Positions 26,773 to 55,267 are shown, numbered from the stretch's first letter. The stretch: DNA of 64,000 bases from Candidatus Omnitrophota bacterium (GCA_015233115.1 JADFYJ010000001.1:3084-67083), one strand, 5' to 3'. Notes: generated from the letters alone by a model not told the origin. A program made the numbers and translations.

Positions 26773-26784
26773 GAATATTAAAAT

Positions 26785-27198
26785 ATGATAATATTCGATC
26801 AAACTATTCCCTCAGATATGTCAGGGGTTACAGAATTTGTTTCCGCTGTCTTTGAAAAATTATCATTTCTGTCTTTTGATGAACCGACCGTGTTTAATTT
26901 AAAGCTTTGCTTGCATGAAGCGGTCGTAAATGCCATTAAGCATGGGAATAAATTAAATAGCAAATTGCGGGTTCGTGTTATAATCAAAAATGAAGAGAAT
27001 AAATTAATATTCGAAGTTGACGACCAAGGGGAAGGTTTTGATCCTCAGTCCATTCCAGATCCTACCGCGGAAGAAAATATTTTAAAGTGCAGCGGGCGGG
27101 GAGTTTTTTTAATTAAAAATATCATGGATGATGTGCAATTCCAAAATAATGGAAAAACTATAAAAATGGTTAAGCTGTTAAAAAAGGAGGAAGGTTAA
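26785..27198 (+). CDS. anti-sigma regulatory factor / Ser kinase (RsbW-like, HATPase_c)
   Basis: HEAVVNAIKHGN (N-box) and DQGEGFD (G1); partner-switch neighbourhood. Confidence 0.7.
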   Translation: MIIFDQTIPSDMSGVTEFVSAVFEKLSFLSFDEPTVFNLKLCLHEAVVNAIKHGNKLNSKLRVRVIIKNEENKLIFEVDDQGEGFDPQSIPDPTAEENILKCSGRGVFLIKNIMDDVQFQNNGKTIKMVKLLKKEEG

Positions 27199-27199
27199 C

Positions 27200-27532
27200 G
27201 TGGACATTAAACTTGACAACATAAACGGTGTTGCGATTGTCACAGTAGGAGGCAACATCAATATGGATAATTGTAATGAACTCAGAGACGCTTTCAAAAA
27301 AGTGCTCAAAGACGGCAAGACTAAAGTTTTGATTGATTTGGCTAAAGTGGTATTTATTGATAGTTCCGGCATTGCTTCGTTAATTGAAATGTTTCAAAAT
27401 TTAGAAAAAGTTGGCGGTAAAATGCGTTTATGCCATGTGAATAAGAATATTATTGGATTATTTGAGATCACCAAAGTGCATAAGCTGTTCGGTATTTTTG
27501 AGAATCGTGAAGAAGCCCTTAAGGAGTTTTAA
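27200..27532 (+). CDS. anti-sigma factor antagonist (STAS domain)
   Basis: GTG start with AAGGAGG RBS; STAS fold with conserved phosphorylatable Ser in FIDSSG. Confidence 0.8.
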   Translation: MDIKLDNINGVAIVTVGGNINMDNCNELRDAFKKVLKDGKTKVLIDLAKVVFIDSSGIASLIEMFQNLEKVGGKMRLCHVNKNIIGLFEITKVHKLFGIFENREEALKEF

Positions 27533-27534
27533 TA

Positions 27535-28305
27535 ATGGCAGAAGATATTACCGCCATAGAGCAAAAAGCTCATATATTGATTGGTGAACATAAGTATCAA
27601 GAAGCGGGTGATCTGTATTATCAAGCCGCTAAAGTTCTTCAAAAAGAAGAAAAACACAGCCGGGCCGCGATTTGTTTAGCTGCTTCGGCCAGTAGTTTAG
27701 CGCTCATATTTGGAGAACGGACATTTCACCGGATTGCCTCACTTTATGAAGAAGCTGCGGAAGAAGCGGAAACTTCGCGCGATTTCGAATATTCATCTAT
27801 GTTGTATAAACATGCCGCTATTGCGTATGAACGGGATCATGATAATAATGCGTTTTCAGAATGTTTTTATAAATCCAAAGAAGCTTACCGGAAGTTCTTA
27901 GTGTTTGATCTTTTTCAGACTCAAAAAAAAGATGATAATGTGGAAATTAAATTTAATCTCAAAATTATTAAACGCCGGATTTTGCCTTTGTTTTCGGTGA
28001 CTTTTTCATCACTTTTGTGGGGTCATGGTGAACGACCGCATCGTACCGTAGCGTTTGGTTTCGTGTTGATTTTATTATGCGCGATTTTTTATACACATGG
28101 TCATTTTTATAAGATTGACGCGGTCATTCATCCTAATTTATTTCAGGCTACGTATTTTAGTTTTACGAATTTCACTAAAGTTGGCGCCGAGAGCGTAACT
28201 CCCATTGGGTTGAATAAAGTAGTGGCGGTTATTGAGGCTTTTAGCGGACTTTTCATCATCCCCTTATTTCTTACTGGTCTTTGCCGAAAGTATTTAAGGT
28301 TTTAA
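27535..28305 (+). CDS. soluble helical N-domain fused to a 2-TM pore-loop ion-channel-like domain
   Basis: C-terminal TM1, pore-helix-like YFSFTNFTKVGAESVTP, TM2; no K+ selectivity GYG. Confidence 0.45.
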   Translation: MAEDITAIEQKAHILIGEHKYQEAGDLYYQAAKVLQKEEKHSRAAICLAASASSLALIFGERTFHRIASLYEEAAEEAETSRDFEYSSMLYKHAAIAYERDHDNNAFSECFYKSKEAYRKFLVFDLFQTQKKDDNVEIKFNLKIIKRRILPLFSVTFSSLLWGHGERPHRTVAFGFVLILLCAIFYTHGHFYKIDAVIHPNLFQATYFSFTNFTKVGAESVTPIGLNKVVAVIEAFSGLFIIPLFLTGLCRKYLRF

Positions 28306-28315
28306 ATAATATATT

Positions 28316-28430
28316 ATGTGGTTTTTGGTTTTTGGATGTTGGTTTTTGGTTGTTGAGAAAAATCGCTTTTTCCTAAAACTAAAAACTCTCAACCATTAAC
28401 GGTGAAACCAACGATTTCAACAATTTCAAC
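28316..28430. repeat. GTTG/CAAC heptad element
   Basis: gtggtttttggtttttggatgttggtttttggttgttgagaaaaatcgctttttcctaaaactaaaaactctcaaccattaacggtgaaaccaacg. Confidence 0.65.
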
Positions 28431-28453
28431 ATTTATGAAAAACAGATTTAAAA

Positions 28454-28572
28454 CGCGCGCGGTAGGGCGGGTTGCATTTAAACCAAATCATTCGCTCAAA
28501 CAGCAGCTCCTAAGCGGAGCTGAACTCGCTCGGTGATTCGGTTTCAACGCTAACCTTGGAATTGGGCACGCG
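28454..28572 (+). repeat. R1 structured element, copy 2
   Basis: cgcgcggtagggcgggttgcatttaaaccaaatcattcgctcaaacagcagctcctaagcggagctgaactcgctcggtgattcggtttcaacgctaacc...gggcacgcgc. Confidence 0.8.
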
Positions 28573-28592
28573 CATATATGATTTAATCGCTT

Positions 28593-29603
28593 ATGAAAAA
28601 TTTATTTATAGTTTGTGGATTGTTGATTGCCATATTTTTATTGCCTTGCTGTGCTCACGCTAACGACCAGGTTTTCAAAGAATACTATGAAGTTCGCAAT
28701 TATTTTGGTACTGCTGTTTCTATTCATGCCTATTATGATCCCAAAATTGACATTGCCTCAGCGGTTCGGGAATGTTGGCAAAAGGCTGATCAAATTCAAT
28801 ATAATATGAATATTTATGATGAGAAAAATCAGGGGGACCTTAATCGGCTGAATAAATCAGGACTTAATGGCGTTCAAGTGAGTGATGATGTTTTTACCAT
28901 ATTTAAACATTCGCTTGAATTTTCACGACTGACTGGTGGAGCGTTTGATGTGACTGTATTACCTTTGATCAAATTGTGGAAAAAATGCGCAAAAGAAGGG
29001 CATCTTCCAGATCGAAAAATATTAGAACAGGCTAAAGCGAAAGTTGGCTGGCAGAATATTCGTCTTAAAGAACCGAATATGGTTTTTTTGATGAAACAAG
29101 GCATGATGGTGGATTTTGGTTCGCCTTCATCCGGATATTTTTGCGATGCTTTAGCCAAAATATTGGAACAACATAATATTCATGATTTTTTAGTTGATGG
29201 CGGAGGGGAATTGTATTACAAGGGGAAAGAAAAAGGAATCATTCCCTGGCGAGTAGGCATTGAAGATCCCTTTCAAAAAGATAAAATTTTGGCTGTTATA
29301 GAATTACGGGATAGGGGGGTATCAACTTCAGGAAATTACGAGAAATTCGTGACCATTGAGGGGCAAAAATATTCGCACATTATTGATCCGGTCAGCGGTT
29401 ATCCCCAAAAAGACACAGTCAGCGTAACCGTGATCGCGGATACTGCGGAAACCGCCAATGAATTGTCTACTGGTTTATGTGTGATGGGCGGACAAAAAGG
29501 CATTGCGCTCATCCGTTCATTGAAAAATATTGAAGCATTGATTATAGAAAACAAGAATGGCATTATAACGCGCTACCAAACTGATGGCTTTTTACCAAAT
29601 TAA
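28593..29603 (+). CDS. apbE: FAD:protein FMN transferase ApbE (lipoprotein)
   Basis: lipoprotein signal (LLPCCA), ApbE conserved blocks (GGAFDVTV, STSGNYE..., HIIDP). Confidence 0.85.
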   Translation: MKNLFIVCGLLIAIFLLPCCAHANDQVFKEYYEVRNYFGTAVSIHAYYDPKIDIASAVRECWQKADQIQYNMNIYDEKNQGDLNRLNKSGLNGVQVSDDVFTIFKHSLEFSRLTGGAFDVTVLPLIKLWKKCAKEGHLPDRKILEQAKAKVGWQNIRLKEPNMVFLMKQGMMVDFGSPSSGYFCDALAKILEQHNIHDFLVDGGGELYYKGKEKGIIPWRVGIEDPFQKDKILAVIELRDRGVSTSGNYEKFVTIEGQKYSHIIDPVSGYPQKDTVSVTVIADTAETANELSTGLCVMGGQKGIALIRSLKNIEALIIENKNGIITRYQTDGFLPN

Positions 29604-29707
29604 TTTCAACAATTTTAACAATTAGCCTCAAAAATACTCCTTGACATAGATAATCCGGTTGATATAATTTACGAACAATTTAAACTTGTTATTTTAGAAA
29701 GAGATAG

Positions 29708-30067
29708 ATGATATCTGAGTATTTAACAACTTCACAAACGGCCAGACTTTTTCATGTCACCCGATTTACTGTTCTTAACTGGATTAAACAGCAAAAATTA
29801 CAGGCTGTTTCAACTTTGGGCGGACACCAAAGAATACCTCAAAAAGCTATTGAAGACCTTCTCAAGCAAAAACAACAGGGATCCAAAATACCTGTTCAAG
29901 CACATATTTCCAAACAAATTCCTGAAGTAAAAAAAACAGTTAAACCTATCAGCACAGGCAGACCAGCACAAGCTAAAGCAGCTGAATTTGCTCGTGTTAT
30001 GAGAAAAGGGTCTTTTATATCCGGGAAATTTATCGCGTCTATAAAAAGCGGATTTTCACTTTTATGA
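29708..30067 (+). CDS. excisionase/MerR-type HTH DNA-binding protein (MamR-like candidate)
   Basis: TTSQTARLFHVTRFTVLNWIKQQKL...GGHQRIP = HTH_17-type helix; paralog of the 56528 ORF (SVTRFSVINWVKKGIL..PGGHRRI). Confidence 0.55.
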   Translation: MISEYLTTSQTARLFHVTRFTVLNWIKQQKLQAVSTLGGHQRIPQKAIEDLLKQKQQGSKIPVQAHISKQIPEVKKTVKPISTGRPAQAKAAEFARVMRKGSFISGKFIASIKSGFSLL

Positions 30068-30156: not shown

Positions 30157-31470
30157 ATGAAACAATCTGATAAAATTGAAGTTATCGTGGTAGGAGCAGG
30201 GCCATCAGGCTTGGCTTGTGCTTATACTTTAGCCAAAGCGGGTGTGGAGGTTCTTGTTTTAGAGCGAGGTGAATATCCGGGCGCCAAAAATATGTTTGGC
30301 GGGATATTTTTTTCTAGTATCATGGAAAAATTTTTTCCGAATTTTTTAGAAGATGCTCCTTGGGAACGTTTTGTGGGGAAAAGAAAATTTGCTCTTTTGA
30401 CAGGTGACAGTGAGATGACGTTTGAAATGAGCCCGAGTTCGTTTAACCGATCGCCGTTCAACCATTCATTCATTGCGCGCCGCGGGCAGATGGATCAGTG
30501 GTTTGCTAAGAAGGTTGAAGAAGCGGGCGGAAATATTATCCCAAATTATTGCGTGCGGGATTTTTTGTATGAAAAAGGTAAAGTCGTAGGTATTACCAGC
30601 GGCGGAGATGATGACAGTTTTTTGGCGGATTGCATTGTGTGTTCAGAAGGCGCGAATTCGCTTTTAACGGAACGGGCAGGATTACGTGAAAAGATCGGTC
30701 CTGAATATCGTTCGATCGCGGTGAAAGAAAATATCCGTTTCTCGCAGAGTGTTCTGGAAGACCGTTTTGGAGTGACCGGACAGCAAGGGGCGGCATATGA
30801 GTATTTTGGTTCATCAGTTAAAGGGCTTTTAGGCAATGGCTTTATTTACACAAATAAAGACAGTCTTTCAGTCGGCGTAGGATTTTCATTGAGTGATTTT
30901 ATTAAAAGCGGTAATAAAAAAACACCTCATGATATTTTAGAAGAATTCAAGTCTCACCCATCTATAGCGCCTTTAGTGCGCGGCGGTGAAACTGTTGAAT
31001 ACATGGCGCATATGATTCCGTCAGATGGATACAACCGGTTACCTAAATTTTACCGTGACGGATTGCTGATTACCGGTGATGCGGCAGGATTATTGAATAC
31101 TTCGTTTTTTCATGAAGGAGTGAATTTGGCCATGCAGTCGGGTATTTTGGCAGCGGAAACAATTATCGAGGCTCGGGCCAAAAAGAATTATTCGTCAGAA
31201 AATTTATCCAAGTACGAAGAGAAGTTGAATGCGAGTTTTATTTTACAGGATTTAAAAAATTGTAAAAATTTCTTAAGTTTCCTGACCACTCATAAAGCGA
31301 TTATTAATGAATATCCCGCTCTTATGAATGATATTTTGGTCGAATATTTTACTGTTTCTGAAAAGCCAAAGACGACGATCAAAAAAGAAATTTTTAACCG
31401 GATCCGGAAGAATGTGAATATACCCCGGATGGCGAGTGATATGTGGGGAGCATGGAGGAATTTAGTATGA
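30157..31470 (+). CDS. fixC: electron-transfer-flavoprotein:quinone oxidoreductase FixC family (FAD-dependent)
   Basis: VIVVGAGPSGLACAY dinucleotide fold, ERGEYPGAKN, conserved FixC blocks; followed by the ferredoxin-like FixX. Confidence 0.8.
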   Translation: MKQSDKIEVIVVGAGPSGLACAYTLAKAGVEVLVLERGEYPGAKNMFGGIFFSSIMEKFFPNFLEDAPWERFVGKRKFALLTGDSEMTFEMSPSSFNRSPFNHSFIARRGQMDQWFAKKVEEAGGNIIPNYCVRDFLYEKGKVVGITSGGDDDSFLADCIVCSEGANSLLTERAGLREKIGPEYRSIAVKENIRFSQSVLEDRFGVTGQQGAAYEYFGSSVKGLLGNGFIYTNKDSLSVGVGFSLSDFIKSGNKKTPHDILEEFKSHPSIAPLVRGGETVEYMAHMIPSDGYNRLPKFYRDGLLITGDAAGLLNTSFFHEGVNLAMQSGILAAETIIEARAKKNYSSENLSKYEEKLNASFILQDLKNCKNFLSFLTTHKAIINEYPALMNDILVEYFTVSEKPKTTIKKEIFNRIRKNVNIPRMASDMWGAWRNLV

Positions 31471-31784
31471 CACCGGAAACAATCATCCACGCTGCTCCTC
31501 ATGGAAAGAAAAAATTGACATTGGAAGATAAGCTTTATTTGGTTAAAACCAAAAAAGATAACATCAGCCATATTACGATTGAACATAAAAAGTGCACGCG
31601 GTGTCAGAATAAAGTTTGTTTGCGGGTGTGTCCGGCGAATACCTATGAAGAACGCGACGGAAAAATTGAAGCTGCTTATGAAAATTGTTTGGAATGCGGC
31701 AGTTGTAAAGTAGCATGTCCTGAAGGCGCAATTAAATGGGAAAATCCCCGCGGAGGTTTTGGGGTGACATTTTTGAATGGATGA
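31467..31784 (+). CDS. fixX: ferredoxin-like protein FixX
   Basis: CTRCQNKVCLRVCP ... CLECGSCKVACP ... WENPRGGFGV; start set to the ATG at 31467 behind a GGAGG RBS. Confidence 0.75.
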   Translation: MTPETIIHAAPHGKKKLTLEDKLYLVKTKKDNISHITIEHKKCTRCQNKVCLRVCPANTYEERDGKIEAAYENCLECGSCKVACPEGAIKWENPRGGFGVTFLNG

Positions 31785-31787
31785 AAT

Positions 31788-31870
31788 AAGGGTTTTTGGT
31801 TGTTAGTTTTTGGTTGTTGGTTGACTAGACTAATTATTTTTTCCAAAAACCATCAACTATCAACAGTAAA
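31788..31870. repeat. GTTG/CAAC heptad element
   Basis: gggtttttggttgttagtttttggttgttggttgactagactaattattttttccaaaaaccatcaactatcaacag. Confidence 0.65.
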
Positions 31871-31881
31871 AAGGAGAGGTT

Positions 31882-32052
31882 ATGGCACATGTAATTGGCG
31901 GGGCTATCGCAGTGGTTTTAGGTGTGGCAGGAATTATCGGCTGGTGGGATAATTTTGGTGATTTTTTACGCGGTGGTATTCCTTTGGCTCTTTTCCTCGG
32001 TGGTTTAATTGCCGTGAATACGGGAATCAAATTTTTAAAGGAAAAGAAATAA
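31882..32052 (+). CDS. 56-aa two-TM membrane protein, MamI-like candidate (absent from the ORF track because <60 aa)
   Basis: AAGGAGAGG RBS 5 nt upstream; MAHVIGGAIAVVLGVAGIIGWWDNFGDFLRGGIPLALFLGGLIAVNTGIKFLKEKK. The G..GWW..FLRG..P.AL..LGL.A pattern matches my recollection of MamI. Confidence 0.5.
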   Translation: MAHVIGGAIAVVLGVAGIIGWWDNFGDFLRGGIPLALFLGGLIAVNTGIKFLKEKK

Positions 32053-32394: not shown

Positions 32395-32460
32395 TTGTCA
32401 CGTTGTTACGTTGTCACGTTGTTACGTTGTCACGTTGTCACGTTGTCACGTTGTTACTAT
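32395..32460. repeat. tandem 16-bp repeat (ttgtcacgttgttacg)x~4, GTNAC octamer type
   Basis: tgtcacgttgttacgttgtcacgttgttacgttgtcacgttgtcacgttgtcacgttgttac immediately upstream of the protease gene. Confidence 0.8.
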
Positions 32461-32478: not shown

Positions 32479-33870
32479 ATGTCAGAAGACAATAGAGAAG
32501 ATTTTTGTAATCAGCCGATCGGGCCCTGGATCGTTGGCGTAATCGTGATATCGATTATGCTGGTGATTTGGATCGTGATGAAACGGGAAGACATTATTCA
32601 TAGCGTTGAAATGGAACAACCTGTGCTTCCTAAAATCAAAATGTCCACAGCTGGAGAACCATCTTTTCCGACAGCAGTAACGCCAGCGGCCTTTAACAAA
32701 CAGACTCCGGTGGATACAAATTATCGGGTTGCGGCGATTACCAAGGCTACTCCTAATGGCGGTATGCAGTTGGTCGCGAATCAAACAAATGGCAATGGCG
32801 GCGGTTTTCAAAATTCTTTAAAAGACGCGGTGAATTCTATTATTCCTACGGTGTGTGATGTGCATGCCCGACGGGCAGCTACGGCTCCAAATGTCAAGAA
32901 AAATGTGGACGCTCAGAATTTAAAATTTGTTCCGCCTTTTAGCGGCGCTATTGATAAATTTGTTGAAAATAAAGGATTTGAAAATATCGGAGCGGGGATG
33001 TTGGTTGATCAGCGTGGTTATGTATTGACGAATTATCATGTAACGCAGGATGCGACGGATATCGTGGTAACAGTGTTTGGGCCGCCATCTCAGGATTATC
33101 ACGCGGATATTGTTGCCAGTGATCCGGCCAATGATTTGGCTCTCATTAAAATTAAAGCAGCCGGTACGTTTCCGGAAGCCAAGATAGGTGATTCCAGTTT
33201 TACTCAGATAGGCGATTATGTCATAGCTGTAGGCAGTCCTTTTGGCATTGAGCAGACAGTGACGAGCGGCATCATCAGCGGTATTCGTAAATCTATTGTG
33301 ATTGAAGGCGTCCGTTATCAAAATCTTTTTCAGACGGATACGCCAATCAACCGTGGTTCATCAGGCGGTCCATTGGTTAATTTAAGAGGAGAGGTGATTG
33401 GGATTAATTCGGCTATTTATGCCCCTACCGGCGTTTTTAGCGGGACTGGGTTTGCGATACCGATCAATGATTGTAAAGATTTTTTGGCCGTGAATTTGGG
33501 AAGAAATTATTCAATACCGGTTGATCAAAAAGGCATGTTAGCGCCGAACGTGGCGGATTTAAATAAAACCCAAAAAGGTCCTATTCCCATTCATTTTGGT
33601 ATCGAAGTAATGCCGGTCAATGATATCATTGCTAAACAGTTTGGGATTAGCGAGCATGGTGGAGTTTTGGTTAACCGCGTTTTGGATGTATCGCCAGCCA
33701 GTTTTGCGGGAATTCAACGCGGAGACATTGTGGTTTCTGTCGCGGGTGTTCCAGTTAAGGGGATGGATGATATTCCCAAAATTGTCGCGCATTTTAAAAC
33801 CGGTGATAACGTGAATGTCCGGATTCTTCGCAATGGAAAAATCGATGAGGTTCTGGTAAAGTTACAATGA
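32479..33870 (+). CDS. trypsin-like (HtrA/DegP family) serine protease with PDZ domain, MamE-Nter / MamO-like
   Basis: N-terminal TM; catalytic His (TNYHV), Asp (DLALIKI), Ser (GSSGGPLVN); C-terminal PDZ (GDIVVSVAGVPVKGMDD); no CxxCH, so the magnetochrome part would be a separate gene. Confidence 0.7.
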   Translation: MSEDNREDFCNQPIGPWIVGVIVISIMLVIWIVMKREDIIHSVEMEQPVLPKIKMSTAGEPSFPTAVTPAAFNKQTPVDTNYRVAAITKATPNGGMQLVANQTNGNGGGFQNSLKDAVNSIIPTVCDVHARRAATAPNVKKNVDAQNLKFVPPFSGAIDKFVENKGFENIGAGMLVDQRGYVLTNYHVTQDATDIVVTVFGPPSQDYHADIVASDPANDLALIKIKAAGTFPEAKIGDSSFTQIGDYVIAVGSPFGIEQTVTSGIISGIRKSIVIEGVRYQNLFQTDTPINRGSSGGPLVNLRGEVIGINSAIYAPTGVFSGTGFAIPINDCKDFLAVNLGRNYSIPVDQKGMLAPNVADLNKTQKGPIPIHFGIEVMPVNDIIAKQFGISEHGGVLVNRVLDVSPASFAGIQRGDIVVSVAGVPVKGMDDIPKIVAHFKTGDNVNVRILRNGKIDEVLVKLQ

Positions 33871-36172: not shown

Positions 36173-36412
36173 ATGGAACCATTTTCAATGTTCGGTGTTA
36201 TCTTGTTATCCGTGGCAGCTGGTGCGGTGTTGTCGATGGTTTCCAAAAAACCGCAAGCTCCAGTTAATAATAAAATTCAGTCTGCTGCGACGGAAAAGCC
36301 GGTTGTCCAGCAACAGGAATTAGTTTCTGAATATACAGAAGAAAAAGTACCAGGAATCATCGATGCTGAAAAAGAAAAAGCCATTGATGATTTGATTGAG
36401 AAAAGGAGTTAA
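36173..36412 (+). CDS. small membrane protein (79 aa)
   Basis: single TM then an acidic/coiled segment; tightly packed between MGC genes. Confidence 0.4.
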   Translation: MEPFSMFGVILLSVAAGAVLSMVSKKPQAPVNNKIQSAATEKPVVQQQELVSEYTEEKVPGIIDAEKEKAIDDLIEKRS

Positions 36413-36414
36413 TC

Positions 36415-36672
36415 ATGGCAACAACGAAACCTATTATTTGTACATTATGTAATGGTGAAATGCAGCTTTATACCGGGCCCCGCTATAATAAAAAATTCAG
36501 CGGTGGTTTAATTATCGGCGGTATTTTTGCGACTTGCTTTTGGATCGGCGCGGTTTTAGGAATTCCGCTTATCGTGATGGGCCTATATATGACTGGTTCT
36601 AAACGTCATTTGTGGGTGTGCAAAGATTGTAATACAGCAATTGAACGTGTTGAAATTAACACTAAAGGATAA
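36415..36672 (+). CDS. small membrane protein with split zinc ribbon (CTLC...CKDC)
   Basis: CxxC - TM hairpin - CxxC; 85 aa. Confidence 0.45.
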   Translation: MATTKPIICTLCNGEMQLYTGPRYNKKFSGGLIIGGIFATCFWIGAVLGIPLIVMGLYMTGSKRHLWVCKDCNTAIERVEINTKG

Positions 36673-36854: not shown

Positions 36855-38063
36855 ATGCCCAATCAAATTAAAGAATATCATCGTAAGCGAATGCAGAGAT
36901 TTTGGCTTGTGGTAATGATTGTTATCATTGGCATTTTCCTTCTGGCCGCGCTTATGCATATCGGCGCGGGCGACGCGGAGTGGGGCGGGATGTCTGTTTC
37001 TAACGCGACGCCTATGATGATGATGGAACATAATATTCCGAAAGATGAACAAGGGGTCGTCGTTGATTGGTGCGAAGATCCAGCCTATGCGGCAGGGGTG
37101 CGGGCTGGAGATCTACTCAAAGCCATTAACAATCAAAGGATCAAAAATTTATCGGATTTTTTGAAAGTGACAAAGAAGACCAGTTTGGCTCCGGGCGCTT
37201 TATTAGACATTTTACGTAATGGCCAACCGCTTTATATTACGATGGAAAATAAGATTGGCATTCACGATCAGCTTAAAAAATCGCTTAACATTGATCCGGG
37301 CACTACTGGAACAACGGCAGGAAATACTAGTACGACTGATGTTCCGTTATCCGCAGGTGTAGGCAAATCAGTACATATTCCGGTTGCGGTTAATAATACT
37401 CAGGCGATTATTCCGGCAGCTTTTGCCAATCGTTCTCCGGCGGAAACAGCGGAGGCAGGGGTTAATGTTGCCCCAAAGGGTATTCCTAATATGAGTTTAC
37501 CTACGCCTAAAGAACAAGGCGCGGCTCATAAAGAATTAGTGGAAGGACATTGGCTGGGCTTAGAACTTATTCCTTTGACTGTCGAGTTAGCCACGGAATA
37601 CCGTGTTCCTCCGGATATTAAAGGGGTTCTGGTTGATGAAATATGTCTTGAGGCTGCTGAATCCGGAATTCTCGCCGGTGATATGGTGGTGGCGATTGAG
37701 GATGAATCAACGCCCGATTTAACCGCTTTTTCAGAAGCAACCAGAAATGTTAAAAATAGGTCTAAAGCGAAAGTACTTGTTTCACGCCGTGGAAAATTAA
37801 TGACCTTTATTATTACCTCTGATAGAACTTTAGGCTTTTCACAGAATGAGGCAGCTCAACCTATCACGCCAGGTGCGCTCAGTCCTCACCGCAGCAGGAA
37901 TAAACCATGTACAACTTGTCATATTATCATGCTGACCGGCGGTCAGCTTCCAACAGACGCGGGTGATATATTACCTAATCCGCCGCCGATCGCCAAAGGC
38001 GCGGTTGCGCCCCATGAATACCGGGGTAAATGCAAAACGTGTCATATTATTTTGAAAAAGTAG
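36855..38063 (+). CDS. PDZ-PDZ-magnetochrome protein (MamP / MamE-Cter-like)
   Basis: N-terminal TM; two PDZ-like regions (GVRAGDLLKAINNQRI; ILAGDMVVAIEDE); C-terminal CTTCHII and APHEYRGKCKTCHII c-heme sites. Confidence 0.7.
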   Translation: MPNQIKEYHRKRMQRFWLVVMIVIIGIFLLAALMHIGAGDAEWGGMSVSNATPMMMMEHNIPKDEQGVVVDWCEDPAYAAGVRAGDLLKAINNQRIKNLSDFLKVTKKTSLAPGALLDILRNGQPLYITMENKIGIHDQLKKSLNIDPGTTGTTAGNTSTTDVPLSAGVGKSVHIPVAVNNTQAIIPAAFANRSPAETAEAGVNVAPKGIPNMSLPTPKEQGAAHKELVEGHWLGLELIPLTVELATEYRVPPDIKGVLVDEICLEAAESGILAGDMVVAIEDESTPDLTAFSEATRNVKNRSKAKVLVSRRGKLMTFIITSDRTLGFSQNEAAQPITPGALSPHRSRNKPCTTCHIIMLTGGQLPTDAGDILPNPPPIAKGAVAPHEYRGKCKTCHIILKK

Positions 38064-38065
38064 TC

Positions 38066-39531: not shown

Positions 39532-39539
39532 AACATAAA

Positions 39540-39660
39540 GCGCGCGGTTGGGCGGTTTGCATTTAAACCGAATCCTTCGCTCAAACAGCAGCTCCTAAGC
39601 GGAGCTGAACTCGCTCGGTGATTCGGTTTCAACGCCAACCTTGTATTTTGGCACGCGGTT
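39540..39660 (+). repeat. R1 structured element, copy 3
   Basis: gcgcgcggttgggcggtttgcatttaaaccgaatccttcgctcaaacagcagctcctaagcggagctgaactcgctcggtgattcggtttcaacgccaacc...ggcacgcggtt. Confidence 0.85.
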
Positions 39661-39667
39661 AGAAATT

Positions 39668-40558: not shown

Positions 40559-40560
40559 AA

Positions 40561-40697: not shown

Positions 40698-40716
40698 AAA
40701 TTTAGAAAATAAAGCT

Positions 40717-43421: not shown

Positions 43422-43424
43422 AAA

Positions 43425-43545: not shown

Positions 43546-43580
43546 AATGAAATGTTTTTAAAAATTTATGAGAATTAATT

Positions 43581-45544: not shown

Positions 45545-45550
45545 TTTTGA

Positions 45551-45650: not shown

Positions 45651-45673
45651 GTTTTTGTTTTATTATAAAATTT

Positions 45674-47913: not shown

Positions 47914-48189
47914 ATGAAAGCGTCAAGTGTATTTAAGATCATCGCGATATTTTTTGTGGTAATGCTAGCCGGTATGTTTATTTTTGAAAATATTGATCCT
48001 GTACCGATTTGGATTCCATTTTTTAAAGGCCGTCGTTTCGGGCTGATTTTTATTATTTTGGCTTCTTATATTTTGGGAGTGCTTACCGCAGTTTGGGTTA
48101 TGAAACGAATTGGCGCGAATATGAAAAAACAAATAAAATTGCGCGAATTGGCTGAAGAAGAAGAGGAGTTGTTTGAAGATGAAGCATAA
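47914..48189 (+). CDS. small membrane protein (LapA/DUF1049-like) with acidic tail
   Basis: two TM, C-terminal EEEEELFEDEA; GAGGAG RBS. Confidence 0.45.
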   Translation: MKASSVFKIIAIFFVVMLAGMFIFENIDPVPIWIPFFKGRRFGLIFIILASYILGVLTAVWVMKRIGANMKKQIKLRELAEEEEELFEDEA

Positions 48190-49069
48190 GGGACCTAAAA
48201 CTCCACAAAAATGTGAGTCATGCGCGCGGAATACTATTTTAGCCGGTCTTTTAGCAAATTTTTTTCTTGCGGCTTTTAAGCTTTTTGTTGGTTTTTTGGG
48301 ACGCAGCCGCGCTTTGATCGGAAGCGGTTTATGCAACTTGAGCGATGTGGGTTCGTCGTTTGTGGTTATCATTGGTATCAAATTTTCCAAGAAGCCGGCA
48401 GACCATCGTTATCCATATGGATATGGTAAAGTCGAGTTTATCGCTCAAGTCGTCATGAGCGTTACCATGATTTTGGGTACAGTTGCGCTTATTTTAAGCT
48501 CGTTCATTGTCATTGCTAAACGGACGCTGGTGGTTCAGCATATGGTGGTATTTTTTGTGGCTATTTTGAGCGCCATCATTAATGCTTTGCTTTTTAAATT
48601 TTCACATTGCGGCAGTAAAGAGCTTAATAGCCCGTCGTTAAAGGCGCATGCTGAACATAACAAGATTGACGTTATTTCTTCTTTACTGGTTGCGATCGGG
48701 GTTATTGTGACCCGTAAAGGTATGCATTGGGTTGATCCAGCAATTGCTATTTTCGAGTGCGCCCATGTTTTGCATGGCAGTATGGGTATTTTAAAAGAGG
48801 GGCTTAAAGGGATTATGGATACCAATCTTCCTGACAGCTATCTGGAAAACGTAAAAAATACTGTTTTACGGGTTAAAGGGGTTAACAAAGTAAATCTGGT
48901 TAAAGGCCGCCAGTCTGGACGGCATATTGTGTTAAACATTATCATGCAATTGAACCCTGATATTACGGTTCTGGACGCTAAGAAGATTAATCAGTCAGTA
49001 AAAGCCTATTTACGCGGTGAAGATAAACATATTGGTAACATTTCAATACAGGTCGTTCCAGCAGAGTAA
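48179..49069 (+). CDS. cation diffusion facilitator (CDF) transporter, MamB/MamM-like
   Basis: 6 TM with a CDF metal site (H/D in TM2/TM5: ...NLSDVGSS..., ...SLLVAIGV...), C-terminal cytoplasmic domain; ATG 48179 chosen (TTG 48173 possible). Confidence 0.75.
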   Translation: MKHKGPKTPQKCESCARNTILAGLLANFFLAAFKLFVGFLGRSRALIGSGLCNLSDVGSSFVVIIGIKFSKKPADHRYPYGYGKVEFIAQVVMSVTMILGTVALILSSFIVIAKRTLVVQHMVVFFVAILSAIINALLFKFSHCGSKELNSPSLKAHAEHNKIDVISSLLVAIGVIVTRKGMHWVDPAIAIFECAHVLHGSMGILKEGLKGIMDTNLPDSYLENVKNTVLRVKGVNKVNLVKGRQSGRHIVLNIIMQLNPDITVLDAKKINQSVKAYLRGEDKHIGNISIQVVPAE

Positions 49070-49320
49070 CAAAGTAACCGAGTAACAGAGTAACAGAGAA
49101 AAAGCGGTTATAGGGATAGGCGATGATTAGAAAAGCGATTGGTTTGAAGTAAAACGATAAATAAATAAGGTGAAAATTGCTTTATTTTAATTTATAAATT
49201 GTGAAATTGAATTTATGAGATTTCTTGTTTGATAATTTTTGTCGATAGTTTTTGCTTTTTTGTTTTTTTACTCGGTTACTAGGTTACCCGGTTACTTTGT
49301 TACTTTTAAGTTAGGATAAG
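49066..49320. repeat. GTNAC octamer-array cassette bracketing an AT-rich spacer
   Basis: gtaacaaagtaaccgagtaacagagtaacagag+gaaaaagcggtt ... ttttactcggttactaggttacccggttactttgttact; right array ends ~15 nt before the ATG. Confidence 0.75.
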
Positions 49321-49322
49321 CC

Positions 49323-50237
49323 ATGGAAGATAAATGTGTCAGATGCGCGAAGACGGTTCCCTGGATGGTTTTAATGGGGAATTTGACGCTGTCTATTTTT
49401 CAGATTTATATTGGATACGCGGCTAAGTCAAAAGGTTTGGTCGCTGACGGGATCCATTCTGGAACAGACGTGGTCACGACCATCATGGTTATTATCACCG
49501 TCGCGCTTTCGAGTCACAAAGATGATAAAAAATACCCTTGGGGTTTAGGAAAATCTGAATTTCTGGGTGCAGTTTTTGCTTATATTTTATTATTAGGTAT
49601 CGCATTAATGATTTTGATTGACGCGATCCATGTGATCATGAGCGGGGTGATTAATCCGCCGCACATGGCCGCTTTTTTTGCGGCTTTGGTGGCCATCATC
49701 TCGAATTATATTTTATCGTCGTATGGATTTTGCGCTGGGAAGAAAATGAATTCGCCGGCTTTAATTGCTAACGCTCAGGAAAACCGCTCTGATATGTTAT
49801 CGAGTATCGCGGTTTTAGTTGGGGTTTTTGCCGCCAACATTGGCTTTCCGATTGTCGACGCGTTAGCTGCTGTTCTGGTTGGTTTAATGATTGCCAAGTC
49901 TGCGGTGACTTTAGGCTTGCAGGCTTACAAAAATTTAATTGACGAATCTTTGCCCGGAGATAAAGAAAAAATTCTTGAGAAAGCAGTTATGCAGTATAAA
50001 GAGGTTAAGGGCGTTAATTATATTCACGTCCGCCGTGTTGGGCAAAAAGCGTGGATTGACATGGAGATTATTATTGATCACAAACGGACAGTAAAGGAAG
50101 GCCACGCGATCGCCCGAGAAATACGTCAGGCACTTATGCGGAAGTACAGTCAGATAAAAGACGTCACGATTTCTTTTACATGCAAAGAAGTTCAAGGAGT
50201 AAAAGGGATTAGAAAAGAAATAGTCATCGCGAAATAA
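49323..50237 (+). CDS. cation diffusion facilitator (CDF) transporter, MamM/MamB-like
   Basis: paralog of the preceding CDF (HSGTDVVTT..., ...DMLSSIAVLVGV...); 304 aa. Confidence 0.75.
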   Translation: MEDKCVRCAKTVPWMVLMGNLTLSIFQIYIGYAAKSKGLVADGIHSGTDVVTTIMVIITVALSSHKDDKKYPWGLGKSEFLGAVFAYILLLGIALMILIDAIHVIMSGVINPPHMAAFFAALVAIISNYILSSYGFCAGKKMNSPALIANAQENRSDMLSSIAVLVGVFAANIGFPIVDALAAVLVGLMIAKSAVTLGLQAYKNLIDESLPGDKEKILEKAVMQYKEVKGVNYIHVRRVGQKAWIDMEIIIDHKRTVKEGHAIAREIRQALMRKYSQIKDVTISFTCKEVQGVKGIRKEIVIAK

Positions 50238-50288
50238 AGTAGCAGAGCAAAAGCGAATGATTAAAGAATGAAAAAGCGATCAGGAAAA

Positions 50289-50411
50289 GCGCGCGGTTGG
50301 GGCGGTTTGCATTTAAACCAAATCCTTCGCTCAAACAGCAGCTCCTAAGCGGAGCTGAACTCGCTCGGGGATTCGGTTTCAACGCAAACCTTGTGTATGG
50401 GGCACGCGATT
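50289..50411 (+). repeat. R1 structured element, copy 6
   Basis: gcgcgcggttggggcggtttgcatttaaaccaaatccttcgctcaaacagcagctcctaagcggagctgaactcgctcggggattcggtttcaacgcaaacc...ggcacgcgatt. Confidence 0.85.
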
Positions 50412-50491
50412 GAGGATGTACGTGAAGATATCGACATTTTATTACTTGGTTACTTTGTCACTATCAAAATTAATATATAAACGGAGGCAAT

Positions 50492-51373
50492 ATGGAAGAA
50501 TTTAAGAAGCATAAAAAGATCGAATCAAAAGAAAAGCAAGACGATATTTTTGAAAAAGCCGAAGAAATCGATGAGGCTGATGAAATTGAAGAAGAGGAAG
50601 AAGTCGAAGAAAATGACGACGAAGAAGTTGTAGTGAAAAAGGCTAAGAAATCCGGAAAATCTAAGAAGTCTAAAAAAGTCAATGTTAATGACACGATCAA
50701 ACATAAGATTCGATTGACAGCGCACGCCTCTCTTTCCGTCGCGGAACGAATTATCAATGGCCTTACGAATGCGTATCAAAATGTGTTTGTGCCGCCTAAA
50801 GAAACTGAATCCAGTTTTAATAAAGATCAGGGCAATAAATATTTTGATAAAGCTGAGTACGAAAAGGCGAAAGACTATTTTTTGCTTTATATCGACGATG
50901 GCCATGAGCAGGACGCGGAAATTTTGTTTATGATCGGCGTTTGTTTTAAAAATATTCAGCAGTACAAAGAAGCTATGGTGTATTTAAAAAAGGCTGAAAA
51001 AATAAATAAAGATGACGCGGATATTATTGCTGAGTTAAGCGATTGTCTTATTCAGTTAGAAAATTACGCGGAAGCGATTGGTTATCTGACTAAGGTCATC
51101 GATGTTCATTCGGATGACAGCTATCTCTATTATAATTTAGGGACGTGTTACGAAAAAACCGAACAGCTGGAAGAAGCAAAAAAGTCTTATAAGAAAGCCA
51201 TTGACCTTGACCCGCGTGAAGTTGTATATTATCAGGCTCTGGGTTTTATTTATGAGAATTCCGGCAATCATAAAGACGCCATCGCGTGTTTCAAAAAAGC
51301 CATGGATATAGAAAAAAGCACCCAAAGATCGTCGACGGGGGGGGGCACTAAAAAAGAATCACAAAAGGCTTGA
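50492..51373 (+). CDS. TPR-repeat protein with acidic N-terminal extension (MamA-like candidate)
   Basis: ~5 TPR units (YFDKAEYEKAKDYF..., GVCFKNIQQYKEAMVYLKKA..., YNLGTCYEKTEQLEEAKKSYKKAIDLDP...); N-terminal EEIDEADEIEEEEEVEENDDEE. Confidence 0.6.
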   Translation: MEEFKKHKKIESKEKQDDIFEKAEEIDEADEIEEEEEVEENDDEEVVVKKAKKSGKSKKSKKVNVNDTIKHKIRLTAHASLSVAERIINGLTNAYQNVFVPPKETESSFNKDQGNKYFDKAEYEKAKDYFLLYIDDGHEQDAEILFMIGVCFKNIQQYKEAMVYLKKAEKINKDDADIIAELSDCLIQLENYAEAIGYLTKVIDVHSDDSYLYYNLGTCYEKTEQLEEAKKSYKKAIDLDPREVVYYQALGFIYENSGNHKDAIACFKKAMDIEKSTQRSSTGGGTKKESQKA

Positions 51374-51493
51374 ACAAGCTGACAAAAAAAGTGATACTGT
51401 GACAACGCAATAAAGATGTTTTTTGTGGATCCCCGATTCAAGCATTCGGGGATGACATATTTAATTTTAATTTATTTTTTGTTTTTACTACAT

Positions 51494-51533
51494 ACGACAT
51501 GCTACATACTACATGCTAGTCGAAAGGTAATTT
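51494..51533 (+). promoter_or_regulatory. conserved upstream motif shared by both lemA-family genes (cgacatgctacat..ctacatgc..tcgaaagg)
   Basis: compare 1475-1528 upstream of lemA: cgacatgctacatgccatgtactacatgcgtgaataatcgaaaggag. Confidence 0.4.
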
Positions 51534-52325
51534 ATGGTTAATAGAATGTCTGCGAATTTGAAGCGGCTTTTTCCGAAAGATTTGGAAGAGCTTAAGCCGG
51601 TTAAAATACATTGGTGGAGTAAAATCGATTTTAGCAATTTACAAAAAAAAGAAGGCCAGTGGATGATCATTGCGGCTTTGATCATTATCCTTCCGGGGAT
51701 TTATTACTACAATAAATTCATCGGGCTGTCCCGCTTTACAGAAATGGAACAGCATCAGATCGAAGTCCAATTACAGAGAAGAAGAAATCTTTCTGTTAAT
51801 TTAGCAAAAATGGTGCTTGCGTACGCCGAGCATGAACGGGTGATGTATGAATACATGGCTGACAAGCGGGCCGCGACTTTGCAAAAAACTGACACTCTGC
51901 TTGATTCACTTAAAAAGAGCGGGTTGGGTGATTTGTCAAAAATAAAGCCTAGCGATATGGAAGGCGCTTTATCTAAATTTATGGCATTGGCTGAAGCTTA
52001 CCCGGACCTTAAATTAAGCACAAATTTTCAGGATTTGATGAATGCGTTAGTGATCAGCGAAAACCGCATCGCAGATAGTCGCATGGAATATAATAAAGCC
52101 GCCAGCCTTTTTCATGCCGCTGTTCGTGAAATTCCCGCGTGTGTGTACGCGTTTATTTTCGGATATCATGAGAAACAGTTTCATTACGCGTCAGTTGATA
52201 AAGATCTTGATAAACCGAATTTAATAGATTATGAAGTGCCGAAAACACCGAATGAAGTACCAGCGCAGATTGATTTACTAAAAGTAGGGACTGAAGCACC
52301 GAAAATACCGTATGTAGTGAAGTGA
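51534..52325 (+). CDS. LemA-family membrane protein, MamQ-like
   Basis: TM then LemA core (FTEMEQHQIEVQLQRRRNLSVNL...YPDLK); 263 aa; second LemA paralog, inside the MGC. Confidence 0.7.
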   Translation: MVNRMSANLKRLFPKDLEELKPVKIHWWSKIDFSNLQKKEGQWMIIAALIIILPGIYYYNKFIGLSRFTEMEQHQIEVQLQRRRNLSVNLAKMVLAYAEHERVMYEYMADKRAATLQKTDTLLDSLKKSGLGDLSKIKPSDMEGALSKFMALAEAYPDLKLSTNFQDLMNALVISENRIADSRMEYNKAASLFHAAVREIPACVYAFIFGYHEKQFHYASVDKDLDKPNLIDYEVPKTPNEVPAQIDLLKVGTEAPKIPYVVK

Positions 52326-52330
52326 TAAAA

Positions 52331-52365
52331 AATTATAATGTTGGTTTTTGGTTGATGGTTTTTGG
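52331..52365. repeat. GTTG heptad array
   Basis: atgttggtttttggttgatggtttttggataaag. Confidence 0.55.
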
Positions 52366-52435
52366 ATAAAGAATAAATGTTATTTCAAAAAATAAAGAAA
52401 CTATGAACTATTAACCGTGAAACTTGGAGAACCCA

Positions 52436-54238
52436 ATGGCGATAAATATCCGAAAATCTTTGCAAGAAGATAAGCTGGCACGAGTCAAAAGCTTTCCGTT
52501 TTTGGAAACAGCTATTGTCTTGGTCGTCATCGTGATTCTGACCGCGCTTTTTCTGGATACCCGCAATGCGCCGCAACCCGGAGCGCCGCGTTTCGCGCAA
52601 GCAGGGGGTACCAACGCCATTGAATTTGATATCATCACAGTTAATACGATTATCGCGAAAGATTTTAATCTGCCGACTGTTTCTGGAGTATTGGTGAACA
52701 ATGTTCCGACCGGTTCTGCCCGCCGGCTGATTGATATCCGCCGCGGAGATGTGATTTTGAAATACAATAATGTTGATGTCCAGTCCGCGAATCATTTAGC
52801 GTATTTGATGTCTCAGAATAAATCCGGCGATACCATCAGTTTTGTTGTGTCGCGAAATGGCAGAGTACTAAATATGTCTTATAAAATTCCCGCGAATGCC
52901 GGTATTGATCTTTTCGGTGAGAGCGGCAGGAATATTCTCGTGGTGCTGGTGATCGTGATTGTTACCTTTACCATGCTTTTTCTCAATCTTTTTAACCGGA
53001 CGGTATGTGTGACGTTGGGCGCGGTTTTGATGTTGGTTGCGGGTTCAGTCTTTGGTTTTTATAATCAGAGCGAAGCGTTTGATTCTATCCGCATGAGCCC
53101 GATATTTATTTTTATGGGCATGAGTATTTTTGCTATTTTTCTTGAAGATCTGCGGTTCTTTGAATATGTGGCTAAAAAGATTGTCGTGGTTTCAAAAGCT
53201 GACGCGATCAAGGTTGTTTTTTCAATGTGTATTTTTACATTTATCGCTTCGGCTTTAGTCAATAATATTTCGGTTATTTTGGTTATAGTCCCAATCACCA
53301 TTTACGTCGCACGGGGCATGAGTTTTGATCCTATTCCGGTCGTTATCGCGGAAGTTATGTCGTCGGTCATTGGTGGCAATATGACGCCGATTGGCGATTT
53401 TTCGAACATGTTAATGGCCTCCAGCGCCGGCTTGACATTCCTGAATTTTTTGGTAGTGATGGGCCCTATCTGCATTATATTTCTAGCTGTGTTTCTCTGG
53501 TATCTTTGGTATTTTGAGTTGCGGAATATGAAAAAGGTCAAATCTTTAAAGATGGAAAAAGAATTTTTGACCAAATTCGAGAATGAGCTTAAAGCTATGC
53601 ATATGGATTGGCTTAATATCAAAAAAGTCCTTCTGATTCTGGGAGGGGTTTTGGTAGCTTTTATCGTATTACCGTTTTTTAAAGTGCATCTAGCACCAAT
53701 CGCTTTAGGCGGGGGCTTCCTTTTATTAGCCATTGAAAATCATAAGGCGAAAGAAGTTTTAAAAAAGATCAGCTTGACCGATATTTTATTTTTTGTCGCG
53801 CTTTTTTTGATCGTCGGAGGTGCTTTATACGCAGGCCTTTTGAAAGTTATTTCTGATGCGTTAATTTCCATGTCTATGGGCAATAAACTTTTATATCCTA
53901 TCCTGTTAATGATCGCCACTGCTGTGTTTACTGCGCTTTTAAATTCTGGACCAGCGACCGCGTTTTTAGTCCCGATTGTTTTAGCGTCTGGTTTCGCGGA
54001 TTTTTCTGATGTGGTGTGGTGGGCTCTGAATTTGGGATCTATCGCCGGAGCATGCGCGTGTATTTCCGGAGCCAGCGCTGGTATTATTGCGCAAACCTTG
54101 GTCGAGGAGCAGGTGACTGATTTTAAAAATAAAGAAGGTTTGACTTTTAAAAGTTATAGCCGCCGGGGAATTCCGGTTGCTATTATTATTCTCGTCATTT
54201 CAAGTCTTTATTTAGCTTTATTAAGCATTATCCCCTAG
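52436..54238 (+). CDS. PDZ domain fused to an ArsB/NhaD-type ion permease (MamN-like candidate)
   Basis: ATG 52436 with GGAGA RBS; N-terminal TM + PDZ (VSGVLVNNVPTGSARRLIDIRRGDVI), then ~11 TM with GPATAFLVPIV and SGASAGIIAQ anion-permease-like loops. Confidence 0.55.
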   Translation: MAINIRKSLQEDKLARVKSFPFLETAIVLVVIVILTALFLDTRNAPQPGAPRFAQAGGTNAIEFDIITVNTIIAKDFNLPTVSGVLVNNVPTGSARRLIDIRRGDVILKYNNVDVQSANHLAYLMSQNKSGDTISFVVSRNGRVLNMSYKIPANAGIDLFGESGRNILVVLVIVIVTFTMLFLNLFNRTVCVTLGAVLMLVAGSVFGFYNQSEAFDSIRMSPIFIFMGMSIFAIFLEDLRFFEYVAKKIVVVSKADAIKVVFSMCIFTFIASALVNNISVILVIVPITIYVARGMSFDPIPVVIAEVMSSVIGGNMTPIGDFSNMLMASSAGLTFLNFLVVMGPICIIFLAVFLWYLWYFELRNMKKVKSLKMEKEFLTKFENELKAMHMDWLNIKKVLLILGGVLVAFIVLPFFKVHLAPIALGGGFLLLAIENHKAKEVLKKISLTDILFFVALFLIVGGALYAGLLKVISDALISMSMGNKLLYPILLMIATAVFTALLNSGPATAFLVPIVLASGFADFSDVVWWALNLGSIAGACACISGASAGIIAQTLVEEQVTDFKNKEGLTFKSYSRRGIPVAIIILVISSLYLALLSIIP

Positions 54239-54247
54239 GAGGATTAG

Positions 54248-55267
54248 ATGAGCAGTGAAAGCAATGAATTTAAAGATAATTGGGTAGCTTACGCGAAAAT
54301 AGGCGGGGCTATCTTAATCATAATTATTGGGTTGATCGCGATGTTCAGTTCGTCAACACCGAAAGGGCCAGTGGCCGCACAGACGATGCAAGTCGCAGCG
54401 GTCGGCGCAGCACCAGGTGCAGTTGCAGGCACTGCGGTTGATTTGCCAGCTTGGTGGATATTGCTTTTGTCCGGTTTTGCGATTGGATGTTACGGGACTA
54501 TCGTAGGTATTGGCGGCGGGCCGATTATTCTGCCATTGTTAGTTTTCTTTTATGGGTGGGAAAATGAACTTTTAGTCGCGACCTCACTTTTTATTGTATT
54601 GTTAAATGCCGGCTCAGGCTGTGCCGGGTACGCGTCTCAAAAACGTATTGATTATAAAGGTGGTATCAAATTTACCTTGGCAGCCATGCCCGGAGCATTG
54701 ATATCGAGTTTTACGCATCATTTGGTTAACCTGACTTTTTTTAATGTTATTTTCGGTATCTTTTTGATCTTCCTGGCTGTTTATACAATTTTCAGCATTG
54801 GCAAATTAAAGAAAGATGAGACCCAGGATCCGGAATATGTGAAAGAAGCAAAAGCTTCTGGATTTCGCCGTGTTAAATTTATGGATAATTTCGGAGTTAA
54901 GTATGATTTTTACGCGAATGATGGTTTAGGTATCGCGATGAATCTTTTGCTGGGTTTTTTCTGCGGGTTTCTAGGCATTGGCGGCGGGGTGTTTCAAGTT
55001 CCGATTCTGATATTTTTGTTAAGATATCCGTCGCATATCGCGACCGCAACCAGCCACTTTGTAACTCTGTTGACTTGCGCGATCGCGCTGTTACCGCACG
55101 TATTTTTAGGTAATGTCTGTTACGCGGAAGCCATATGGATGGGCATTGGCGTTATTGTAGGCGCTCAAGCCGGAGCGCGCATAGCACCGAAGTTGAACAC
55201 GAAAATCACTTTGTATTTATTCGTGATCATTTTAGTGGTGCTGGCAATAAAATTATTCTTGGTGTAG
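54248..55267 (+). CDS. TauE/SafE-family permease (MamO-Cter-like)
   Basis: duplicated GIGGGPIILPLL / GIGGGVFQVPIL motifs typical of TauE/SafE; GGAGG RBS. Confidence 0.7.
   Translation: MSSESNEFKDNWVAYAKIGGAILIIIIGLIAMFSSSTPKGPVAAQTMQVAAVGAAPGAVAGTAVDLPAWWILLLSGFAIGCYGTIVGIGGGPIILPLLVFFYGWENELLVATSLFIVLLNAGSGCAGYASQKRIDYKGGIKFTLAAMPGALISSFTHHLVNLTFFNVIFGIFLIFLAVYTIFSIGKLKKDETQDPEYVKEAKASGFRRVKFMDNFGVKYDFYANDGLGIAMNLLLGFFCGFLGIGGGVFQVPILIFLLRYPSHIATATSHFVTLLTCAIALLPHVFLGNVCYAEAIWMGIGVIVGAQAGARIAPKLNTKITLYLFVIILVVLAIKLFLV

Follow-up and report, generated by a model that had tools for sequence, protein, structure and literature searches.

A mamI gene at the head of an Omnitrophota magnetosome gene cluster and a conserved small neighbor with a putative docking tail

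Introduction

Is a reading frame of only 56 codons, overlapped by a longer frame on the opposite strand, a genuine mamI gene, and what is the second small frame that begins immediately behind it? Both questions are raised by a 64,000-nt stretch of DNA from a Candidatus Omnitrophota bacterium (GCA_015233115.1, JADFYJ010000001.1:3084-67083; hereafter the window). A preliminary description of this stretch had noted a resemblance between the first frame (ORF1) and MamI and had proposed the second (ORF2) as a possible MamL-like partner.

Virtually all magnetosome clusters, including those of Omnitrophota, contain mamI as a core gene (PMC7602337, PMC7449369, PMC9840458). The magnetosome localization of its product and the need for it in membrane and crystal formation are known only for Magnetospirillum, in which loss of mamI abolishes magnetosome membranes in M. 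magneticum, whereas the gene is not strictly essential in M. gryphiswaldense (PMC7017999, PMC3905215).

In this study, we analyzed the two frames, their relatives and the surrounding genes. We consider it very probable that ORF1 is the mamI gene heading an Omnitrophota magnetosome cluster, and that ORF2 is a real gene, distinct from mamL and seen in this lineage only, whose C-terminal tail may serve for docking.

Results

Layout of the mamI-ORF2 locus

The 56-codon frame was found where the preliminary description had placed it (Table 1), and its translation is MAHVIGGAIAVVLGVAGIIGWWDNFGDFLRGGIPLALFLGGLIAVNTGIKFLKEKK. The Shine-Dalgarno site in front of it is strong, and an AAGGAG-type site at equal spacing lies upstream of the mamI homologue in nearly all of 21 loci; the reported distance of 5 nt to the start codon, however, applies to the AAGGAG core only, the complete 9-mer AAGGAGAGG being separated from the ATG by 2 nt. 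ORF2 starts after a gap of 3 nt behind the stop codon of ORF1 and agrees with its earlier description as an 81-aa protein with one hydrophobic helix and a basic stretch. ORF1 had been called unannotated, which is true of the ORF track used at that time but not of GenBank. Exact-sequence look-up retrieved ORF1 as HQL26_00210 (MBF0477884.1) and ORF2 as HQL26_00215 (MBF0477885.1), each labeled "hypothetical protein", and the protease downstream of ORF2 as MBF0477886.1, all three on a single contig of 269 kb belonging to a Candidatus Omnitrophica metagenome-assembled genome. The HQL tags and the isolate names of relatives (e.g., nDJH6_bin14) are in line with Lin et al., 2020 (PMC7602337), who studied 168 genomes of magnetotactic bacteria.

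Comparison with 18 relatives revealed 221, 84 and 614 differences at codon positions 1, 2 and 3, respectively, and median dN/dS values of 0.07 for ORF1 and 0.23 for ORF2. At the level of sequence comparison, the conservation of both frames is more than chance. No RNA families were found in an Rfam scan of the window, and the number of sites returned by a promoter and terminator scan was not above the chance expectation.

Table 1. Features of the window around mamI and the magnetosome gene cluster (coordinates counted from the first letter of the window)
Feature	Position	Strand	Remarks
Partner-switching module	24856-30067		immediately before mamI in relatives
fixC/fixX-like pair	30157-31784		between the HTH gene and mamI
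Antisense ORF, 133 aa	31860..32261	-	judged non-coding
Shine-Dalgarno site AAGGAGAGG	31871..31879	+	direct reading
ORF1 = mamI, 56 aa	31882-32052	+	ATG 31882, TAA 32050-32052
ORF2, 81 aa	32056-32301	+	ATG at 32056, in frame with ORF1
8-bp tandem repeat TTGTCACG/TTGTTACG, ~7.5 copies	32395..32457	.	ORF2 to mamE spacer; TRF score 106-119
Other 7-8-bp tandem repeats	31791-31823, 450-487, 21543-21584, 49062-49098		intergenic spacers
mamE-like HtrA protease	32479..33870	+	N-terminal helix, trypsin domain, one PDZ, no magnetochrome; Pfam Trypsin_2 4.5e-31, PDZ_2 1.3e-11; NCBIfam MamE 2.6e-76
Membrane-anchored PDZ protein, 198 aa	33867..34463	+	NCBIfam MamP/DegP PDZ matches; one N-terminal hydrophobic helix
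Magnetochrome (MamT/MamP-like) protein, 563 aa	34473..36164	+	NCBIfam MamT 8.5e-12, MamP 3.9e-9; PF18509 MCR present on homologues
Two small ORFs	36173-36672	+	
mamP (PDZ + magnetochrome)	36855..38063	+	NCBIfam MamP 4.9e-66
Siroheme-route heme b synthesis block, complete	38030-47911	+	between mamP and mamM
Remaining core cluster (mamM to mamO-Cter)	48173..55267	+	NCBIfam matches
mamM	48173-49069	+	NCBIfam MamM 2.8e-72
mamB	49323-50237	+	NCBIfam MamB 9.8e-71
mamA (TPR domain)	50492-51373	+	NCBIfam MamA 1.8e-41
mamQ	51534-52325	+	NCBIfam MamQ 1.9e-30
PDZ-mamN fusion	52424-54238	+	NCBIfam MamN 2.3e-78
mamO-Cter (TauE-like)	54248-55267	+	NCBIfam MamO 8.9e-8
Further PDZ + magnetochrome proteins, HTH gene between	55704-57533	+	
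feoB	61822-63846	+	

ORF1 is a member of the MamI family

The NCBIfam MamI model NF040963 matched ORF1 with E=1.7e-13 and 50.2 bits, residues 1-54 corresponding to positions 1-54 of the 69 in the model. Since this score is below the equivalog cut-off of the model (80 bits), which weighs against the assignment, the match denotes homology rather than an automatic name; a score under the cut-off fits a distant phylum. A search of 5.8 billion proteins yielded 34 relatives, almost all of the named ones from Omnitrophica, and the family PF26391 (labeled MamI) had been precomputed on every one of them, including the 95%-identical representative of the 90% cluster to which ORF1 belongs. Among 512 ORFs of the window, ORF1 was the sole match of the MamI profile. 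Gap-free alignment with ORF1 was obtained for 27 homologues, in which the segment GWWDNFGDFLRG is almost invariant. ORF1 shares 44% identity with a MamI from Deltaproteobacteria, whose own score against the MamI model is 61.5 bits and which adjoins MamA.

Judged by these family matches, ORF1 is a genuine mamI gene. The resemblance suggested in the preliminary description, for which comparison with MamI models had been recommended, is thus borne out by NF040963, by PF26391 on 34 of 34 homologues and by the position of the gene at the head of a magnetosome cluster; the small ORF is also kept in related genomes. The motif on which that suggestion was based reads GWW-x5-FLRG-x2-P-x-AL, with two residues between G and P where one had been written. 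The identification is correct and already known for Omnitrophota magnetosome clusters, and its value is one of annotation only, namely that a GenBank "hypothetical protein" is the MamI of a published Omnitrophota cluster, and that mamI can be hidden by short-ORF filters and a longer antisense ORF.

Two further loci were observed in the course of the MamI comparison. First, in a groundwater metagenome-assembled genome of Deltaproteobacteria (JACRCY010000494.1, 4665-5985; locus L026), two MamI repeats in tandem make up a protein of 108 aa, which scores 84.2 bits and exceeds the NCBIfam cut-off. Behind this internally duplicated MamI lie a second MamI, of 65 aa, and then MamA. Second, a contig titled 'uncultured Planctomycetales bacterium' (CAZASA010000011.1; locus L020) carries an Omnitrophota-type trio of mamI, ORF2 and mamE, with 71% identity in MamI. 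Either this contig was mis-binned or mis-classified, or the trio was transferred between phyla.

With regard to topology, two membrane-spanning segments had been claimed previously. In a hydropathy scan, residues 1-19 and 31-49 are hydrophobic, with WWDNFGDFLRG between them and KFLKEKK after the second. AlphaFold2, which was run with no membrane context, instead predicted a single continuous helix (residues 2-55, pLDDT 90.8). Because this model contained no hairpin, the hairpin considered here is based on hydropathy and the literature. MamI would be a 56-residue membrane protein with two hydrophobic segments, an aromatic and acidic loop (GWWDNFGDFLRG) between them and a basic tail. If it resembles the MamI of Magnetospirillum, it probably forms a hairpin with both ends in the cytoplasm, and it may act at the earliest step, the formation of the magnetosome membrane and the assembly of its proteins.

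The magnetosome gene cluster and its surroundings

The mamI gene opens a complete plus-strand magnetosome cluster. Homologues of MamE, MamP, MamM, MamB, MamA, MamQ, MamN and MamO-Cter are encoded on the same strand within 24 kb (Table 1), in an order common to at least 20 related genomes. The heme block inside the cluster comprises a precorrin-2 dehydrogenase domain, hemA, hemC, a cobA-hemD fusion, an ahbC/NirJ1-like gene, hemB, ahbD, ahbA, ahbB and hemL, and may be the source of heme for the many magnetochrome proteins of the cluster.

In relatives (loci L002 and L003, 1-3950), mamI is immediately preceded by a conserved partner-switching module, which is also present in the window. Its components are a SpoIIE-family phosphatase, which in the relative L002 has a CHASE2 domain, an RsbW-like kinase and a STAS antagonist; an ion-channel-like protein, ApbE and an HTH_17 regulator come next. 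This module may regulate the magnetosome cluster. The fixC/fixX-like pair was present between the HTH gene and mamI only in the window and in its closest relative.

The spacer between ORF2 and the mamE-like gene contains a tandem repeat with seven matches of the TTGTCACG/TTGTTACG pattern, compared with 0.04 expected by chance. The spacer is widened by this repeat to 177 nt, compared with about 10-125 nt in relatives. Other intergenic spacers of the window also contain short tandem repeats (Table 1). Such repeats could be a protein-binding array or a product of replication slippage.

ORF2 defines a small protein family of this lineage

A word-indexed homology search with the single ORF2 sequence returned only the query. 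The view of ORF2 as an orphan gene was nevertheless rejected, as relatives were found through syntenic ORFs and then by alignment search. The single-sequence search had missed relatives that share a stretch of 12 identical residues, and an orphan verdict from such a search is therefore unreliable for short membrane proteins. On contigs with MamI relatives, a gene of 70-81 codons lies between mamI and the mamE-like gene. We collected 22 Omnitrophota-type loci from species-representative genomes, and ORF2 was found in all 20 with sufficient sequence downstream of mamI; the order MamI-ORF2-MamE is kept in about 20 species. Thus, every Omnitrophota-type cluster examined here has a gene for a small protein at this place.

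With the alignment as query, we retrieved 32 proteins of the ORF2 family, all unnamed and without Pfam domains except for one lone PF23714 match. When 1.84 billion cluster representatives were searched exhaustively with HMMER, only 32 matched, all of 41-88 aa and of the same layout. A weak match to the ORF2 profile (E=5.8e-6), a divergent member, is encoded directly after a PF26391 MamI gene, and another is encoded between the C-terminus of a MamI and the N-terminus of a MamE-like protein. Among the ORFs of the window, the ORF2 profile matched ORF2 only. Taken at the level of these comparisons, ORF2 is a real gene of a family seen so far in this lineage only, for which a literature search returned neither a name nor a description.

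The hydropathy of ORF2 shows one hydrophobic segment (residues 17-35) with a basic stretch behind it, and AlphaFold2 predicted a single helix (residues 15-38) in an otherwise low-confidence, disordered protein. In the family alignment, C12, P15, W16, G18, C26 and F34 are invariant, accompanied by a conserved basic stretch, a frequent VQAAFP element and a conserved C-terminus. Motif statistics were calculated for 58 non-redundant members. The last residue is Phe in all of them, and position -3 is aliphatic (I, L, V, F and M being counted) in 57, whereas Lys or Arg occupies position -4 in 41 (of 58). The motif C-x-x-[PA]-W-x-G was present in 57 of the 58. The median dN/dS of ORF2 differs between its parts, 0.17 for the N-terminal part with the helix and 0.43 for the tail.

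A Cys-x(2-5)-Pro-Trp motif directly precedes the membrane helix in both ORF2 (K-C-F-S-P-W-L-G) and the MamE-like protease (F-C-N-Q-P-I-G-P-W-I-V-G), and is conserved at both N-termini in about 20 species. It could be an interaction, sorting or redox motif. Descent of ORF2 from a duplicated MamE N-terminus was rejected; the shared motif is real, but hhalign gave a probability of 2.3%, and homology is unsupported. A relationship between ORF2 and MamI was likewise rejected (hhalign 0.3% against the MamI profile).

A putative docking peptide at the C-terminus of ORF2

We infer the topology, the function and any binding partner of the two small proteins from the features above. ORF2 would be co-transcribed and would yield a small, bitopic membrane protein. 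The conserved parts of this protein are a juxtamembrane C-x-x-P-W-x-G, a transmembrane helix that contains another invariant Cys, a basic stretch behind the helix and, where the disordered tail ends, the invariant [K/R]-aliphatic-x-Phe. Such a free aliphatic-x-Phe end on a disordered tail could, on a speculative reading, be the hallmark of a short docking peptide. The helix would then serve as an anchor in the magnetosome membrane, and the free peptide would be bound by one of the peptide-binding modules of the cluster, most likely a PDZ domain, either of the MamE-type HtrA protease next to it or of the PDZ proteins, or alternatively the TPR protein MamA.

Several observations are consistent with a PDZ partner. 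PDZ domains are abundant in the cluster, in which at least five proteins contain one. C-termini of the Tyr-x-Phe type are ligands of HtrA PDZ domains (e.g., in DegS and DegP), and HtrA proteases are switched on when such C-terminal peptides of outer-membrane proteins are bound. The C-terminus of ORF2 shows the pattern of HtrA-PDZ ligands, an aromatic end and a hydrophobic residue at -3. The MamE-like protease has an apparent His-Asp-Ser catalytic triad, and its PDZ domain has kept, at its start, the hydrophobic-Gly-hydrophobic (FGI) loop that is the site of ligand-carboxylate binding in HtrA PDZ domains. Peptide binding to MamE PDZ domains activates MamE in vitro (bioRxiv 10.1101/047555). Against a PDZ partner speaks that the PDZ domains of M. 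magneticum MamE showed no preference for C-terminal peptides.

We put forward only tentatively, and as a rather unlikely reading when taken whole, that ORF2 founds an undescribed Omnitrophota-specific family of magnetosome proteins whose aliphatic-x-Phe end is a tethered PDZ ligand for the MamE-type HtrA protease. If true, ORF2 would recruit or switch on this protease, a built-in version of the switch formed by outer-membrane-protein peptides and DegS, and would be the missing physiological activator of MamE. The C-terminal motif offers a concrete and cheap experimental entry to the recruitment and regulation of MamE-type proteases, or of another peptide-binding protein, in deep-branching magnetotactic bacteria.

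The side of the membrane on which the tail lies bears on this proposal. The mean number of Lys and Arg residues in the ORF2 family is 2.05 before the helix and 4.8 in the 15 residues after it, and by the positive-inside rule the tail would thus be cytoplasmic. By comparison with MamE and MamP, a lumenal location would be expected for the HtrA-type PDZ domains of the cluster; the PDZ proteins of the cluster have one N-terminal anchor each. The predicted cytoplasmic tail therefore counts against docking of ORF2 to a lumenal PDZ domain. On the other hand, the Cys-x(2-5)-Pro-Trp shared before the helix would suggest the same orientation for ORF2 and MamE.

A cytoplasmic tail could instead find its partner in the cytoplasm, either the TPR protein MamA or a different factor, and would then tether a coat or cytoskeleton to the magnetosome membrane, the C-terminus binding no lumenal PDZ domain. 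This alternative, which we regard as improbable, is favored by the charge distribution and by the presence in the cluster of MamA with its TPR domain. TPR domains elsewhere bind free C-terminal peptides (Hop with EEVD, PEX5 with SKL), which also speaks for MamA. However, an aliphatic-x-Phe ending is of the HtrA PDZ ligand type, whereas TPR clamps favor acidic or SKL-type ends, and ORF2 adjoins the mamE-like and PDZ genes, with mamA about 18 kb downstream.

ORF2 is not a homologue of MamL

The MamL-like partner proposed in the preliminary description was not supported as a homologue. The NCBIfam MamL model NF040988 gave no match at E<=10 to any of 21 members of the ORF2 family and none at E<=1 to three divergent members. 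A MamL control sequence reached 158.3 bits on the same model, matching along its entire length, indicating that the control sequence was valid and the model was working. hhalign of the ORF2 profile against MamL returned a probability of 0.7%, and ORF2 has a single helix, compared with the two described for MamL (PMC3905215). Homology of ORF2 with MamL was thus rejected.

As regards its role, ORF2 could be the functional counterpart of MamL and replace a lost mamL, with its basic segment bending or seeding the magnetosome membrane together with MamI. None of the window proteins scanned matches the MamL model, which favors such a replacement, as does the fact that ORF2 is small, membrane-anchored and strongly basic in one stretch and adjoins mamI; in addition, a non-homologous substitute for MamL, Man2, has been proposed in Nitrospirota (PMC9840458). 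We nevertheless consider this role doubtful. Besides the lack of a sequence relationship and the presence of one helix instead of two, it leaves unexplained the hydrophobic-x-Phe C-terminus, the most conserved feature of ORF2.

The antisense reading frame

The 133-aa frame on the minus strand overlaps both ORF1 and ORF2. It had previously been described as spurious, and our results agree: the frame is present at the coordinates reported (Table 1), its product has no family match, and its open length is not conserved, varying from 59 to 134 codons in relatives. According to the coordinates, the antisense frame and the sense genes share their third (wobble) codon positions, which explains why this frame tends to remain open. 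For the same reason, codon-position bias alone was rejected as a discriminator between the strands, which were judged by family matches and length conservation. That the two small ORFs are chance frames and the antisense frame is the real gene, as a naive length rule would favor and its largely open state in several relatives might suggest, is hardly credible, since the sense ORFs have MamI-model matches, conserved Shine-Dalgarno sites, low dN/dS and conserved length, whereas the antisense frame matches no family, shrinks to 59-82 codons in several relatives and is surrounded by neighbors of ORF1 and ORF2 that all lie on the plus strand.

Comparison with known systems

ORF1 resembles the known MamI proteins of Magnetospirillum, Desulfovibrio magneticus and further magnetotactic bacteria in its nearly full-length HMM match, its small size with two hydrophobic segments, its location next to mamE within a magnetosome cluster and its single copy at the head of this cluster. 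It differs in length, with 56 aa compared with 69-77 aa for known MamI (NF040963 model length; PMC3905215), and in its loop, the near-invariant GWWDNFGDFLRG of Omnitrophota being longer than the 3-residue loop of M. gryphiswaldense MamI (PMC3905215).

Like MamL, ORF2 is small and membrane-bound, contains a basic segment and shares an operon-like unit with mamI. However, it has no detectable homology to MamL, one helix rather than two, and a hydrophobic-x-Phe end on a disordered tail.

The comparison with outer-membrane-protein peptides and DegS concerns the candidate docking tail. ORF2 shares with these peptides a terminal Phe, invariant in its family, a hydrophobic residue at -3 and a flexible tail, and its gene directly precedes that of a PDZ-containing HtrA protease. 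In contrast, ORF2 would be a protein of the inner or magnetosome membrane and not a beta-barrel, and its tail may, according to the predicted topology, lie on the wrong membrane face. The MamE PDZ domains of strain AMB-1 did not favor C-terminal ligands.

Finally, the cluster differs from that of Magnetospirillum in its domain arrangement. The mamE-like protease is devoid of magnetochrome motifs, which are found here in the separate 563-aa protein together with zinc-ribbon-like matches, and the MamN-type transporter carries an N-terminal PDZ domain, both of which represent domain shuffling.
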